Source: Minisyncoccia bacterium
GTDB taxonomy: Bacteria > Patescibacteriota > Minisyncoccia > UBA6257 > 2-01-FULL-56-20
DNA: 24,840 nt
Direction of reading: 5' to 3'
Assembly (NCBI GenBank): GCA_049968295.1
Contig: JBMFRD010000002.1
Span: 1-24,840 of the forward strand
Part shown: positions 14,859 to 24,840 of the stretch, in pieces
Layout: the number at the start of each line of letters is the position of its first letter
How positions within the stretch are numbered: the first letter of the stretch is position 1
Notes under the pieces: generated by a model
The model's input: only the letters and a program-made list of their open reading frames with translations
Told to the model about the DNA's origin: nothing
The model's database searches: none
Program-made: the position numbers and the translations under genes

Positions 14859-15596
14859 ATGGAAAATAAAATTCATATTTCATTATCCGCTGAAAAATTG
14901 TTTCAAGTTAATGGTTTTACTATAACTAATACTTTATTAGTTAGTTTAATGGTTTTTTTAATTTTATCAGTTAGCGCTTATTTTTTTAGAAAAAAATTAA
15001 GTTTAATTCCGGGATTTTTTCAGAATTTAGTTGAATATCTTATTAGCGGCGCCTTAAATTTAATGAAAAATGTTTTAGGCTCAGAAAAAAAAGCTGAAAA
15101 ATATTTGCCTTTAATTTTTACTATTTTTATTTTTATTTTAGTTTCTAATTGGTTAGGATTATTGCCCGGAGTGGGTTCAATTGTTTTAAAAGAACATAAT
15201 GAAACCATTCCAATTTTTCGTTCGCCATCCAGCGATTTAAATTTTACTTTAGCTTTGGCTGTTATTTCTGTGATGACTATTAATTTATTAGGAATTACGG
15301 TTTTAGGATTTTTTAAATATGTTAAAAAATTTATTAATTTTTCAAATCCAGTTCAATTTTTTATTGGCATACTTGAATTAATTTCAGAAATTGCTAAAAT
15401 GATATCGTTTTCGTTTCGGTTGTTTGGAAATGTTTTTGCCGGCGAGGTGCTTTTAACTATTGTTGGTTTTTTAGCGCCTTATTTTATACCTTTGCCTTTT
15501 TTGTTTTTGGAAATTTTTGTCGGGTTTATTCAGGCTTTTGTATTTGCAATGTTAAGTTTAGTTTTTGTTTCAATTGCAACCAGCGAAAATCATTAA
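14859..15596 (+). CDS. atpB: F0F1 ATP synthase subunit a
   Basis: SNWLGLLPG, FRSPSSDLNFTLALA, SFSFRLFGN with the essential Arg, EIFVGFIQAFVF. Confidence 0.96.
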   Translation: MENKIHISLSAEKLFQVNGFTITNTLLVSLMVFLILSVSAYFFRKKLSLIPGFFQNLVEYLISGALNLMKNVLGSEKKAEKYLPLIFTIFIFILVSNWLGLLPGVGSIVLKEHNETIPIFRSPSSDLNFTLALAVISVMTINLLGITVLGFFKYVKKFINFSNPVQFFIGILELISEIAKMISFSFRLFGNVFAGEVLLTIVGFLAPYFIPLPFLFLEIFVGFIQAFVFAMLSLVFVSIATSENH

Positions 15597-15657
15597 ATAA
15601 AATAATTTAAAAATGGTCGACGCCGATTTATCGGCAAAAAATAAAATAAATAAAAAA

Positions 15658-15888
15658 ATGGAATTAGAAACAGTAAAAATTTTTGCTACAATGGGCACGA
15701 TTATTGTTGGAACAATTGCGCCAGCAATTGCTATTGGTTGGATTGGATCTAAGGCTTCAGATGCAATTGGCCGCAATCCAGAAGCAGCGCCAAAAATTCA
15801 AACTGCAATGATTTTGGCAATTGCTTTTGCTGAAGCCATTGCAATTTATGCCTTAGTAGTAGCTTTAATTATTAAATTTGTTGGTTAA
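15658..15888 (+). CDS. atpE: F0F1 ATP synthase subunit c (76 aa; second ATG preferred over 15613)
   Basis: GRNPEA loop, FAEAIAIY ion-binding Glu; ATG 15658 follows an A-rich leader like other starts here and gives a normal c-subunit length. Confidence 0.95.
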
Positions 15889-15898
15889 TTAATAAATT

Positions 15899-16399
15899 AT
15901 GCAGGAATTAATTCATCAACTTGGCATTGATTGGAAACTGCTTTTGTCGCAGGCAGTTAATTTTGGCTTGGTTTTAATAATTTTAAAAATTTTTGTTTAT
16001 CAGCCGCTTTTAAACCTTTTAAATGAAAGGCGGAAAAAAATTGAAGAAGGAATTTTAAAAGCCGAAGAAGCAGATAAACGTTTAAGCCAGGTTGAAAATC
16101 TTAAATTAGAAAAAATAAAAGAAGCTGAAAAAGAAGTTTTAACTTTAATTCAAGAAGGAAAAGAAAAAGCAATTCAAATTGAGGCTGAAATTTTGGAAAA
16201 AGCTAAACAAAAACAAGAAGAAATTTTAAAACAAGCTGAGTTAATGGCTCGGGACCAAGCTAAAAAAGCTGAAGCTGAGGTTTATAAAAAAGCAAAAGAA
16301 TTAGTAAAAACAACTATTCAAAAAACAGTTGAACTTGATCCAAGATTAATTGACGAATCATTAATTAATCAAGCCTTAGAAAGTTTAAATAATAAATAA
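15899..16399 (+). CDS. atpF: F0F1 ATP synthase subunit b
   Basis: LGIDWKLLLSQAVNF N-terminal TM followed by a charged coiled coil; operon position. Confidence 0.93.
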   Translation: MQELIHQLGIDWKLLLSQAVNFGLVLIILKIFVYQPLLNLLNERRKKIEEGILKAEEADKRLSQVENLKLEKIKEAEKEVLTLIQEGKEKAIQIEAEILEKAKQKQEEILKQAELMARDQAKKAEAEVYKKAKELVKTTIQKTVELDPRLIDESLINQALESLNNK

Positions 16400-22017: not shown

Positions 22018-23808
22018 TTATACTTCAATAACAACTGGCAAAACTATTGGCCGACGTCTGGTTTTATTATACAAAAATTGGCTAATTTGTTCACGCATTA
22101 AAGTTTTTAAATAATCAGCGCCATAATCTTGGCCAGATAAACGAGCAACTATTCCTCTTATTTTTTTTCTAATTTCTTCTAATAATTCCTGATTTTCTTT
22201 TAAATAAATAAATCCGCGAGAAATAATATCCGGGCTTTTTAGCAAATTGCCAGTTCTCTTATCAATAGTTGCAATTAAAACCAGCATTCCTTCTTTGGCT
22301 AAATTTAAGCGATCGCGCAAAACCACTTCTTCAACATCGCCAATTCCTAATCCATCAACCATTACATAAAAAGCTGGAACAGTTTGATTAGTGATTATAA
22401 ATTTATCTTTATAAAGTTCAGCTACTTGTCCATTATCCATTAAAAATATATTTTCTTTTGGTATACCGGTTTCATAAGCGTTTAAAGCGTTTGCGGCACG
22501 CATAAAATAATAACCATGAATTGGCACAACAAATTTAGGTTTAATTAAACTCATTATTATTTTTTGATCTTCTTTAGGCGCATGACCCGAAGAATGAATA
22601 TCTACTAAATCTGAATGATAAACAATTGCTCCTTGTCGGGCCAAATTATCTTTTACATATTGAACGCTTCTTTCGTTTCCAGGAATAATTGAAGACGACA
22701 AAACTACTGTATCTCCGGGTTTAATTTTAAGCAAGCGATGCTCGCCATTAATAATTTTCATTAAACTAGCGTTTGATTCGCCTTGAGCTCCGGTTGAAAG
22801 GATTAAAATTTTATTGTCTTTATATTTGTTAATTTCTTCTAAAGGAATAATTGTTCCAGAGCGAGTTTTAATATAGCCTAAATTTTGAGCAATACTTACA
22901 TTGGCTTTCATTGAGTATCCGGAAAAAGCAACTTTTCGGCCAAGACGCTCAGCAATATTTATAATTTGAGCAATACGATCTAAAAGCGAAGAAAAAGTAG
23001 CAACAATAATTCTGCCATCTGCTTTTTTAAATAACTCTTCTAAATTTTTAGCAACAATTTTTTCAGAAAGAGTATAACCTTCTTTTTCAGCGTTAGTGGA
23101 ATCAACCATTAAAGTATGTATCCCCATTTGGCCAACTTTTTTAAATTCATCTAATCCTTGAGGTTGTCCTTTTTCATCATAATCAATTCTAAAGTCTGAA
23201 AAATGAACAATATTGCCAATAGGTGTATGAAGCACAATGCCGGTTGATTCCGGAACAGTGTGTGGAACTCCAAAAAAAGTAGCTTCAAAATATTCAGAAA
23301 TTCTAATATGTTGGCCGTTTTTAATTTCAACAATATTTAATTTAGGACTATTTGGAAAATCTTCCTGCCTTTTTAAAACAATGGCTTTGGTTAGAGGAGT
23401 GGCATAAATTGGTGGATTGCCTAAATCTTCAATAATATAAGGGATAGCGCCAATATGATCATAATGGGCGTGTGTTAAAATTAAAGCAACTATATTTTCT
23501 CTTTTTTCTCTTAAATAAGTAATGTTAGGAATAATATAATCTATGCCCGGAGTTTCTTCTTCTGGAAATTGAATTCCGGCATCAATTACAACAATTTCAT
23601 TTTTGTATTCAAAAAAAGAACAATTTCTTCCAATTTCTTCTAATCCGCCCAAGGGAACAAATTTTACCGGCAATTCATTTTTTTCTAATATTTTTTTGGT
23701 TTTTTTTATTTGCAATAGCGCGGATTGATTTATTGTATTTGTAAGACGGCTTTTAAAAACCTGTTTTTTTAACGGTTTATTTAAAGTACTTGTTTTTTGT
23801 AAAGACAT
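22018..23808 (-). CDS. rnj: Ribonuclease J
   Basis: PLGGLEEIGRN, THAHYDHIGA, STGAQGE, HSSGHA, PIHG, RRPIVLPVVIEV; basic N-terminal extension makes the start uncertain. Confidence 0.96.
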   Translation of the reverse strand: MSLQKTSTLNKPLKKQVFKSRLTNTINQSALLQIKKTKKILEKNELPVKFVPLGGLEEIGRNCSFFEYKNEIVVIDAGIQFPEEETPGIDYIIPNITYLREKRENIVALILTHAHYDHIGAIPYIIEDLGNPPIYATPLTKAIVLKRQEDFPNSPKLNIVEIKNGQHIRISEYFEATFFGVPHTVPESTGIVLHTPIGNIVHFSDFRIDYDEKGQPQGLDEFKKVGQMGIHTLMVDSTNAEKEGYTLSEKIVAKNLEELFKKADGRIIVATFSSLLDRIAQIINIAERLGRKVAFSGYSMKANVSIAQNLGYIKTRSGTIIPLEEINKYKDNKILILSTGAQGESNASLMKIINGEHRLLKIKPGDTVVLSSSIIPGNERSVQYVKDNLARQGAIVYHSDLVDIHSSGHAPKEDQKIIMSLIKPKFVVPIHGYYFMRAANALNAYETGIPKENIFLMDNGQVAELYKDKFIITNQTVPAFYVMVDGLGIGDVEEVVLRDRLNLAKEGMLVLIATIDKRTGNLLKSPDIISRGFIYLKENQELLEEIRKKIRGIVARLSGQDYGADYLKTLMREQISQFLYNKTRRRPIVLPVVIEV

Positions 23809-23857
23809 ATTTATATGTAAAAATTTAAAAGATCGATTTTATTTTTTTTATTTTCAC

Positions 23858-24079
23858 TTTCTTGTTTTGTGCCCAGGGGGAGATTTGAACGTCGGCTTTC
23901 AGCCTCTTAAGAAACCTCTCGGTTTCTTACGTCGCTCATTTCATTCGCTCCTATTTTCCTCTATGGGGGAACTACCGTTTCCCCGACCCCTTTCCCAGTT
24001 CAATTTGCTTTTTTTAATGTTTGATCTTAAATTTTTCCCATTTTATTTTCTTGTTTTGTGCCCGGGGGGAGATTTGAAC
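23858..24079 (-). mobile_element. 33-bp direct repeat of the tRNA-Leu 3' end plus trailer, flanking a 156-bp structured insert (att-like scar or MITE-like element)
   Basis: TTTCTTGTTTTGTGCCC(A/G)GGGGGAGATTTGAAC at 23858-23890 and 24047-24079, 32/33 identical; insert 23891-24046 contains several hairpins. Confidence 0.7.
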
Positions 24080-24142
24080 TCCCATAGCCTTGCGGCTACA
24101 ACGTCCTGAACGTTGCGCGTCTGCCAATTCCGCCACCCGGGC
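24059..24142 (-). tRNA. tRNA-Leu(CAG)
   Basis: Acceptor GCCCGGG/CCCGGGC, anticodon arm CAACG-ttCAGga-CGTTG, long variable arm TAGCC-GCAA-GGCTA, T arm GGGAG-TTCAAAT-CTCCC; no CCA. Confidence 0.96.
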
Positions 24143-24220
24143 ACAAATTTACTTTTAAAAATCAAAAAATTAATGTCAAAAAATAAAACTAACCATCAAG
24201 ATTTTTTAAATTTAAATTAA

Positions 24221-24249
24221 ATACTATCACAATTTTATTTAAAAAGCAA
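24221..24249 (-). promoter_or_regulatory. Putative sigma70 promoter for tRNA-Leu
   Basis: Minus strand TTGCTT, 17-bp spacer, extended -10 TGaTAGTAT. Confidence 0.5.
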
Positions 24250-24282
24250 ATAAATTTTTTTGTAAATAATTTTTATATTTTG

Positions 24283-24355
24283 TCCGCCCACCAGGAATCG
24301 AACCTGGAACCTCCTGCTTAAAAGGCAGTTGCTCTACCAATTGAGCTATGGGCGG
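24283..24355 (-). tRNA. tRNA-Lys(TTT)
   Basis: Acceptor CCGCCCA/TGGGCGG, D arm GCTC/GAGC, anticodon loop ctTTTaa (A27-G43 mismatch), T arm CCAGG-TTCGATT-CCTGG; no CCA. Confidence 0.93.
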
Positions 24356-24364
24356 AATACTATT

Positions 24365-24392
24365 ATATTATTGAATTTTAAAAATTTATCAA
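24365..24392 (-). promoter_or_regulatory. Putative sigma70 promoter for tRNA-Lys
   Basis: Minus strand TTGATA, 16-bp spacer, TAATAT, with an overlapping TATAAT; AT-rich context weakens the call. Confidence 0.4.
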
Positions 24393-24438
24393 GCCCAAGA
24401 TAATTATATTTAAAATGCAAAAAGAAAAACAATAAAAC

Positions 24439-24473
24439 AGAATCTAGAAAATAGAATCTAGAATTTAGAATTT
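24439..24473. repeat. Tandem heptamer array (AGAATCT-type x5)
   Basis: AGAATCT AGAAAAT AGAATCT AGAATTT AGAATTT. Confidence 0.8.
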
Positions 24474-24528
24474 TACGATATCTTTATTTTTTATTTAATA
24501 AAGTTATTTAAAATTTTCATCATTATCT

Positions 24529-24563
24529 TTTGCCTTTTGCACTTTGCGTTTTTCGTTTTTAAT
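24529..24563. repeat. Tandem heptamer array (TTTGCNT-type x5)
   Basis: TTTGCCT TTTGCAC TTTGCGT TTTTCGT TTTTAAT. Confidence 0.7.
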
Positions 24564-24572
24564 ACGCCATTA

Positions 24573-24739
24573 TCAAATCGCCACAGTTTATCTCGACTCT
24601 TCGGGGACCAGCTAACTTTGGTCTCGCAATGACGGAAAAAGAATTGTCATTGCGACCCCGAAACATCGGGCAAAGCAATCTTGCTACCTCATCCGTCATT
24701 GCGAGAAGTGAGTGTAAACGAACGGCGAAGCAATTTTAC
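24573..24739. repeat. Second cluster of the same REP-like family: one direct unit (about 24573-24633) and two inverted units (24646-24684, 24695-24739)
   Basis: TCGCAATGAC at 24624-24633; GTCATTGCGA at 24646-24655 and 24695-24704; inverted units end in GCAATCTTGC and GCAATTTTAC. Confidence 0.9.
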
Positions 24740-24753
24740 ATTCGCTTTGTTCA

Positions 24754-24797
24754 AATTCAAAATGTAAAAAATGCAAAACTAAAAATGCAAAATGCAA
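24754..24797. repeat. Tandem heptamer array (AATGCAA-type, about 6 units)
   Basis: AATTCAA AATGTAA aa AATGCAA AACTAAA AATGCAA AATGCAA. Confidence 0.75.
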
Positions 24798-24840
24798 AAG
24801 AAATATTTTGAATTTTTAATTTAAATATAGATTCTAGATT

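Follow-up and report, generated by a model that had tools for sequence, protein, structure and literature searches.

Beside the tRNA-Leu(CAG) gene of a Minisyncoccia bacterium, at positions 23891-23997 of the 24,840-nt stretch of contig JBMFRD010000002.1 that was analysed (hereafter the window), lies the 107-nt core of a short, folded element without open reading frame (ORF). The family to which this core belongs is real, widespread in the order, and undescribed in the sources that we searched. Its members sit mostly in the T loops of tRNA genes, and the gene that is hit is always left intact, because the target sequence is present in direct, inverted and again direct copy, once before the core and twice behind it. 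Judging from these products, we lean on balance towards a non-autonomous element that is copied, rather than cut and pasted, into conserved sites by template switching.

Layout, orientation and targets

We compared about 85 instances, each oriented with the core as on the plus strand of the window. (G, C, L and f numbers are our labels for genomes, contigs, loci or instances, and bacterial families; the own genome, G000, is a metagenome assembly of about 0.6 Mb in 92 contigs.) The layout common to them is a target fragment L, the core, the reverse complement rc(L), a short spacer or none, L once more, and R, the rest of the intact gene. The direct repeat lies above the 99th percentile of shuffles in 54 of 61 distinct instances, with a length of 14-121 nt (median 24 nt) and a median identity of 0.94. 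In 38 of 49 instances, a word of the junction region, 7 nt or longer, recurs in exact inverted form within 30 nt behind the core, compared to 1 of 49 in a reversed-sequence control.

Most targets are the T loops of more than 20 different tRNAs and of tmRNA (L021, L085). In all 41 instances with a tRNA gene within 300 nt, representing more than 20 anticodons, this gene lies to the right of the core at a distance of 28-190 nt and on the opposite strand, and a further 22 instances in G389 and G353, tmRNA included, have the same orientation. Protein-coding genes are hit as well: the AHID (G1) box of fusA (the C20 copy of the own genome, L082 in G190 and L078 in G142), the AHID (G1) box of lepA (L014, L076 and L090, in G005, G142 and G144), the start of rplK (L105), and the 3' ends of rpsI (L081) and uvrB (L033). 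The GTPase box, ..CACATTGAYSC|, and the T loop read in antisense, ..GGATTCGAAC|, are alike and have ATYGA..C in common. Orientation follows this asymmetric target motif and not the direction of the gene: L is the 3' end of the gene in tRNAs and the 5' end in fusA and lepA, and the side of the core on which the intact gene lies never changes. A first reading of the window, made from its sequence only, had proposed a minimal non-autonomous element that targets tRNAs. The ORF-less, repeated, structured family stands, but the restriction to tRNAs is contradicted by fusA, lepA, rplK, rpsI and uvrB.

Two further kinds of site were noted. In L019 (G022), L029 (G033) and L115 (G386), the element is at the end of an RNA-like sequence, ..GTTGCGGGGGCAAGAATCGGAC|, which resembles a structured RNA's 3' end, with a motif like a T loop, and has no ARAGORN call. 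In L088 (G358:C1, at about 118 kb), a copy is located just upstream of an ORF starting MRIIAHIDLDAF, with an N terminus like that of DinB/Y-family polymerases; this is another AHID-coding sequence, and no clear duplication was found there.

The copy at the tRNA-Leu gene

The features of the window copy and its surroundings are as follows.

23859-23890 (strict) or 23824-23890 (extended): direct repeat copy A, a dead tRNA-Leu 3' end with trailer
23891-23997, plus strand: element core, 107 nt, defined by sequence, homologs in the own genome and relatives, and covariation
23894-23904, plus strand: hairpin 1, GGCT-TTC-AGCC, preceded by a CGTC tag that spans the left junction
23908-23929, plus strand: hairpin 2, TAAGAAACC-TCTC-GGTTTCTTA, of the pattern xxxAACC-loop-GGTTxxx
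23930-23964, plus strand: linker, CGTCGCT..TCGCTCC-TATTTTCC
23965-23984, plus strand: hairpin 3, GGGGGAAC-TACC-GTTTCCCC, with one G.T wobble on the plus strand
23985-23996, plus strand: tail, GACCCC-TTTCCC
23998-24008, plus strand: inverted copy of the target end, GTTCAATTTGC, short and imperfect
24048-24079 (strict, 32 nt) or 24012-24079 (extended, gapped): direct repeat copy B, from the repeat search
24058-24079, minus strand: 3' part of tRNA-Leu, the second direct target copy, continuing into the rest of the gene (ARAGORN; Rfam)
24058-24142, minus strand: intact tRNA-Leu(CAG) (ARAGORN; Rfam tRNA model RF00005, 52.7 bits)
24282-24355, minus strand: tRNA-Lys(UUU), upstream of tRNA-Leu on the same strand (ARAGORN)
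24392-24365, minus strand: promoter-like site

Copies A and B are identical at 31 of 32 nt, with a start-to-start spacing of 189 nt, and in none of 100 shuffles of the window were there two matches; the gapped extension has lower identity. Copy B comprises the trailer, the 3' strands of acceptor and T stem, and the T loop of the intact tRNA-Leu. Copy A ends ...GATTTGAAC inside the T loop at the left junction. The duplicated fragment begins at G53/T54, so that the sequence-only reading was right both about a tRNA-Leu 3'-end duplicate 189 nt away and about its start in the T loop. It was also right about a GC-rich insert with three hairpins, whose coordinates agree with ours: the GC content is 50.5% in the core, 29% in the window and 28% genome-wide. 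As it had stated, no integrase is encoded. The 157-nt insert contains no ORF, and the sole ORF in the region (23867-24109, TTG start, 80 aa) runs through the tRNA and was rejected as spurious.

The closing inverted repeat needs a more differentiated view. The reverse complement of 23880-23890 is GTTCAAATCTC, to be compared with the inverted copy listed above; within it, ATTTGAAC (23883-23890) reverse-complements to GTTCAAAT, and positions 23998-24005 read GTTCAATT, a match at 7 of 8 positions. Taken alone, this repeat is near chance and becomes meaningful only through the pattern of the family, where an inverted word at that place is the rule. The inverted repeat claimed earlier thus exists family-wide, but its copy in the window is imperfect. 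What has to be given up is the idea that the element carries an inverted T-loop copy of its own, since the inverted copy is that of the local target and for fusA reads GCATCAAT...

A separate cluster of GC-rich hairpin repeats is present at 24573-24739 of the window, with, for example, perfect 15-nt arms at 24622-24636 and 24692-24706.

Distribution of the family and conservation of its hairpins

Homologs of the core in the own genome were found on contigs C20, C40 and C24. The C20 copy, with an 81% identical core, lies inside a duplicated 5' end of fusA. The fusA fragment ends ...GCGCATATTGATGC| in the AHIDA codons, the element closes with GCATCAATCTGCGC, an inverted copy of that flank, and a 78-82-nt direct copy follows that leads into the intact fusA. 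C40:5595-5735 and C24:1-100 contain a permuted tandem form after tRNA-Met, with a 94-nt unit in the same sense as the tRNA and the tRNA end inside a GGGG..CCCC hairpin. Both contigs end in this tandem repeat, which thus broke the assembly. Similar permuted forms occur in L011, L027 and L032.

BLASTN detected the core in 26 of 61 relatives. For an order-wide scan, we used a 15-nt motif from the right end of the core with at most one mismatch. It was present in 150 of 401 sampled genomes, in 1-15 copies each; the reversed pattern, which served as control, gave about 50 single hits. The distribution is patchy by family, with 31/41, 29/42 and 23/42 genomes positive in some families and 0/25, 0/12 and 0/11 in others. 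Beyond the order, 4 of 150 genomes of the phylum contain the exact motif, in the same layout. The elements are 80-150 nt long, consist of modular hairpins, and can be grouped by type into TCAC-type, GTCG-type and CGGTTCCCC-type subfamilies.

In an Rfam search with both strands of 23700-24840, only tRNAs reached the gathering score, and nothing else was meaningful at E<=10. The core had no blastn match in a phage collection, no public sequencing run contained the window (word share <=0.05, conserved tRNA parts only), and no description of the element was found in the papers searched. The suggestion that the family might be undescribed was right in outline, and the proposed look for homologs in the own genome and in relatives, beside 3' fragments of various tRNAs, had a positive outcome, with more than 20 anticodons.

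The homologs also covary. In hairpin 2, 5.72 of 6 variable positions are paired, compared to 3.93 (maximum 4.45) in 2000 permutations, and in hairpin 3 compensation takes the form of GC<->AU exchanges in 15 sequences and AU<->CG exchanges in 5. RNAalifold, run on the 3' half, recovered hairpin 3 only, with hairpin 2 misaligned; the permutation test was used for the latter. This pattern of substitution suggests that the hairpin structure is under selection. The sequence-only reading had considered a simple, decaying local duplication in case neither homologs nor covariation turned up; both were found.

Evidence for mobility

As the sequence-only reading had proposed, relatives were searched for empty sites. 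In the same-genus genome G001, about 15 nt separate the orthologous ORF start from the intact tRNA-Leu, and element and duplicate are both absent. The site is empty, although an element lost through recombination between the repeats would leave the same picture. Nearly identical cores are found at different targets within one genome: 92 of 94 positions are identical between the cores at tRNA-Asp and lepA in G142, identity is 89% between those at rplK and tRNA-Glu in G263, and it reaches 92-95% between cores at different tRNAs in G353 and G389. Nested or tandem re-insertion at one target was seen in L014, L127 and on C40 of the own genome.

Five insertion sites are common to two species of one genus (G389, G353), which indicates that some insertions are old and inherited. 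Between families, the cores of L071 (G203, f16; tRNA-Ile) and L085 (G374, f1; tmRNA) are 91% identical over about 100 nt. As this is far above neutral expectation at such a distance, it implies either horizontal spread or strong constraint.

Junctions and the origin of the target copies

The target copies were made in place and not imported on an attP site, because they have species-specific flanks, lengths that vary from 14 to 121 nt, and fuzzy junctions. Both the direct and the inverted copies take in species-specific trailer or upstream DNA, and the inverted copies of L016 (38 nt) and L024 (36 nt) extend into the trailer. In rplK (L105), lepA (L076) and L060, the inverted copy runs 4-6 nt past the fragment end into R, and in uvrB (L033) it begins 20 nt off the fragment end. 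Such overshoots and offsets speak for copies that are templated from the intact target rather than borne by the element. The two near-identical cores of G142 each have an inverted copy of their own target.

The two ends of the core behave differently. The left junction wanders within the T-loop homology, as in GGAATC|tcacgtcg, GGGA|atctcacgtcg and ..GAAC|gtcg, whereas the right end does not vary and reads GACCCC-YTTYCC. Three inverted copies (L016, L024 and L117) have a scrambled acceptor part but have kept T loop and trailer; this may reflect the survival of only those insertions in which the tRNA's 3' end is not sequestered.

The dead fragment carries a position-specific scar. It differs from the intact copy only in the last 7 nt before the core, either by GAAC->TCAC (the 'TCAC' copies, e.g. 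L028, L074, L094) or by T->G/A at -6/-7, the antisense of the T-loop residues A58/A59. No change was seen at -8 to -10, and positions further out are identical. Scars were identified in L015, L133, L135, L136, L138, L146 and L153; in the window, it is the inverted copy that shows the equivalent change.

A model of copying by template switching, and its rivals

Together, these products suggest a model in which the polymerases would be those of the host. A DNA 3' end would arise in a conserved site, by a nick, a break or as a stalled nascent strand, and would use T-loop-like microhomology to anneal to a single-stranded element copy. It would then be extended to the sharp end of this template, GACCCC-TTTCCC, fold back on its own L, and copy it backwards to give rc(L). 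Re-priming upstream of L on the original template would finally allow L and R to be copied again. Annealing by microhomology would explain the fuzzy left junction, and extension to the template end the sharp right one. Fold-back copying would account for an inverted copy that is local, variable in length, and sometimes overshooting or offset, and re-priming upstream for a direct repeat of variable length and an intact gene. Since the gene is regenerated, insertions into essential genes would be tolerated, and the same site could be hit again, as in the tandem and nested arrays.

Several observations weigh against this model. For unaided repair, it would be unusually reproducible to go through three ordered switches with one and the same result in about 85 cases, which argues for a dedicated, unseen factor. 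The strong conservation of the right-end module (91% between f16 and f1), for which the model does not account, suggests recognition by a specific protein, and the position-specific scar, which the model does not predict, hints at a specific factor as well. In the circularly permuted tandem forms (C40/C24 and the three similar loci), the core is at the other turn of the zig-zag. Finally, many of the copies have been inherited from long ago, and movement may occur at a low rate. We nevertheless consider copying by template switching somewhat better placed than not to explain the products. More tentatively, and with distinctly less assurance, we suggest that a folded module without genes and without a transposase of its own, which uses host replication or repair and rebuilds the essential targets it enters, may represent a new form of selfish-DNA mobility.

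A dedicated single-strand DNA enzyme, such as an Ssn-like or other GIY-YIG nuclease, an HUH nickase or a novel recombinase, could alternatively move the element. It would recognize the CGTC-tagged left hairpin and the right module, GGGGAAAC/GTTTCCCC-GACCCC, and cut T-loop-like targets; the triplicated target would then be the footprint of nick repair. The sharp and highly conserved right module, the orientation fixed relative to an asymmetric target motif, and a closing stem that is always mismatched near the core, like the imperfect hairpins that such enzymes read, are in keeping with this idea. So is the CGTC tag beside a small left hairpin, which is reminiscent of repetitive extragenic palindromes (REPs) cut by Ssn (PMC3733652, PMC11893778). 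However, in the left module, C|GTC-GGCT-TTC-AGCC, the bases GG after GTC do not fit the 'WY' of the published SRM consensus, and variable duplication lengths and wandering junctions are unlike the work of precise enzymes.

Candidate genes were sought directly. Tiny GIY-YIG ORFs (80-120 aa) are frequent, being present in 45 of 61 relatives, and directly adjoin tRNA genes; the GIY-YIG enzyme SegB of phage T4 recognizes the T-loop motif GGTTCRANTCC (PMC2330249). The genes are real, but their presence does not track the element, and on this ground we set them aside as its mobilizer: they occur in 23 of 26 element-positive and 22 of 35 element-negative genomes, none was found in the element-bearing G389, G353, G029 and G033, and family f25 has many such genes and no element. 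A Y1 transposase or a reverse transcriptase was rejected likewise. The own genome has no match to Y1_Tnp or RVT_1, neither class was found in G389 and G353, which are richest in the element, 9 of 10 other genomes searched, these two included, yielded no Y1, and neither Y1 nor reverse transcriptase showed a pattern among five element-rich versus five element-free genomes. The own genome contains only one Xer-like recombinase, the sole Phage_integrase match, on contig C1. No tested class (integrase, Y1 transposase, reverse transcriptase, tiny GIY-YIG nuclease) thus tracks the family, and we regard a dedicated enzyme as rather unlikely, if well worth keeping in mind.

Some of the GIY-YIG loci deserve description in their own right. 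At C6:15579-16074 of the own genome (L039/L042), an 86-aa stand-alone GIY-YIG ORF (15736-15996) ends 2 nt before an intact tRNA-Glu(UUC). Upstream is a dead 5' fragment of tRNA-Glu with an anticodon loop split by two GC hairpins, and a 66-nt direct repeat (15579-15644 = 15935-16000) takes in the ORF's own 3' end. The 86-aa protein belongs to no NCBIfam family, and among solved structures the UPF0213 protein 1ZG2 comes closest to it (E 3e-5). A GIY-YIG protein of roughly 404 aa is also encoded in these genomes. In relatives, a similar ORF abuts tRNA-Ser (L121) and tRNA-Val (L123). At C19:1900-2230 (L040), a GIY-YIG pseudogene (one TAA) is part of an insertion located in the 16S rRNA gene, in its 5' region; a 21-nt inverted repeat, CCCAGCATCACTTTTTGGGTC / GGTCCAAAAAGTGATGCTGGG, delimits this insertion.

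Other known systems were also compared and set aside. The R'/R'' consensus of an integron attC site was not found, a retron non-coding RNA would lack its reverse transcriptase, and the bridge RNA of an IS110 element or the pairing of exon- and intron-binding sites (EBS/IBS) of a group II intron does not fit the absence of an ORF and the long duplications.

The core might also act primarily as a functional structured RNA that arises when transcription reads through from the tRNA gene, and that serves, for example, as a processing, stability or decoy module. It would be kept by selection for that role, and the copies of the tRNA end would be part of its folded architecture. No terminator-like site was found between tRNA-Lys/tRNA-Leu and the element, so that read-through is possible. 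Covariation in two hairpins and the conservation of some insertions across species fit such a function. On the tRNA-sense strand, the terminal loop is of the GNRA type in 37 of 55 instances, and RNAfold predicts a more stable fold of the whole element in 47 of 51, with 77 versus 21 G.U pairs. DNA hairpins, too, favor GNRA-type loops. The asymmetry of fold stability is confounded by the G-richness of this strand (37 G versus 17 C), hairpin 2 has no wobble asymmetry (2 versus 1), and the wobble of hairpin 3 in the window pairs only on the strand opposite to the tRNA-sense strand. We see here only a lean towards a single-stranded role of the tRNA-sense strand, as RNA or DNA. Moreover, the fusA, lepA and rplK copies place this strand antisense to the gene and without a tRNA promoter, neither strand has an Rfam match, the distribution is patchy, with 1-15 copies, and nested re-insertions occur. 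We consider this explanation improbable.

The sequence-only reading had interpreted the duplicate in terms of tyrosine integrases that cross over in the T loop. The element would then be the remnant of an integrase-borne island, since deleted, with the duplicate as the displaced half of attB, and a direct repeat of a tRNA 3' end from the T loop is indeed the classic att signature. This frame does not fit the family. The same flanking is seen in fusA, lepA, rplK, rpsI and uvrB, the target has an additional inverted copy, the repeats of 14-121 nt include local trailer DNA and have fuzzy junctions, none of the about 85 instances contains an integrase, and the single Xer-like recombinase is on another contig. 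An integrase remnant is accordingly very improbable. An assembly or amplification chimera, or a decayed one-off local duplication, might come to mind for a 92-contig metagenome assembly with C40 and C24 copies at contig ends, but is hardly credible given that about 150 independent assemblies carry diverged copies in the same layout, and in view of covariation and of orthologous copies in two species.

Significance

The insertions are recurrent and rule-bound, and the essential genes whose most conserved sequences they enter are not inactivated. The genomes of Patescibacteria measure 0.5-1 Mb and contain hardly any non-coding DNA, and to our knowledge little is known about their mobile DNA. If copying by template switching is true, the tRNA T loop and the GTPase G1 box would be safe harbors in genomes without spare space. 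If a dedicated enzyme exists, it would be a nuclease or recombinase that is specific for site and structure in a new way; otherwise, the element would exemplify a natural, programmable, homology-guided copy-in by host polymerases. In practical terms, the family is a hazard for annotation, as it creates dead tRNA fragments, false gene starts (the duplicated 5' ends of fusA and lepA) and breaks in metagenome contigs.

Comparison with known systems

We know of no described bacterial transposition or integration pathway that matches a target triplication with inverted middle copy. Individual traits have precedents, which concern the choice of target and the result rather than membership in a known class. 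SegB of phages T4 and T6 is alike in that a conserved T-loop motif exposes many tRNAs to attack, that junctions show microhomology, and that the segB gene is located among tRNA genes; SegB breaks drive tandem amplification through microhomology (PMC13096335). However, SegB is a free-standing protein of about 220 aa with a DNA-binding domain, whereas the element is ORF-less and GIY-YIG genes do not track it. The products differ as well, being plain tandem repeats for SegB and a direct-inverted-direct triplication around a conserved folded core for the element.

CGTC-tagged REP/NTS sequences share with the element small, GC-rich, CGTC-tagged hairpins, a modular and mosaic build, occurrence in small genomes and sometimes in genes, and, together with Ssn, the recognition of one strand only. 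Ssn nucleases are proteins of 94 aa that act on CGTC-tagged REPs (PMC3733652, PMC11893778) and cut single-stranded DNA a few nt upstream of the tagged hairpins (PMC11893778). REPs are 20-40 nt long, high-copy and mostly extragenic, and they do not duplicate their target. The element, in contrast, is 80-150 nt long (3-5x longer), has 1-15 copies at defined gene positions, triplicates its target, and departs from SRM after GTC.

The attL/attR sites of integrase islands are similar in the direct repeat of a tRNA 3' end from the T loop and in the regeneration of the tRNA. A T-loop sublocation class of tRNA integration sites was reportedly distinguished by Williams in 2002. The element differs from such islands by the lack of an integrase, a repeat that stems from local DNA and varies in length, an extra inverted copy, and targets in protein-coding genes.

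Like both MITEs (miniature inverted-repeat transposable elements) and palindrome-associated transposable elements (PATEs), the element is short, non-coding, structured and non-autonomous, and a genome has several copies of it that have diverged. MITEs, however, have fixed terminal inverted repeats and fixed short duplications, whereas the ends of the element change with the target (as with the fusA word given above, GCATCAAT) and its duplications span 14-121 nt. PATEs derived from IS200/IS605 make no duplication and need a Y1 transposase; the element has hairpins near both ends, as they do, but always comes with target copies.

The products also show a likeness with DUP-TRP/INV-DUP rearrangements, attributed to fork stalling and template switching or microhomology-mediated break-induced replication (FoSTeS/MMBIR), and with the Rep-nick-primed integration of adeno-associated virus (AAV). 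In both, direct-inverted-direct copies and microhomology junctions are accounted for by two template switches of a 3' end. These events are sporadic or depend on the viral Rep protein, whereas the outcome described here recurs at defined sites, and one turn of it is occupied by a conserved non-coding core.

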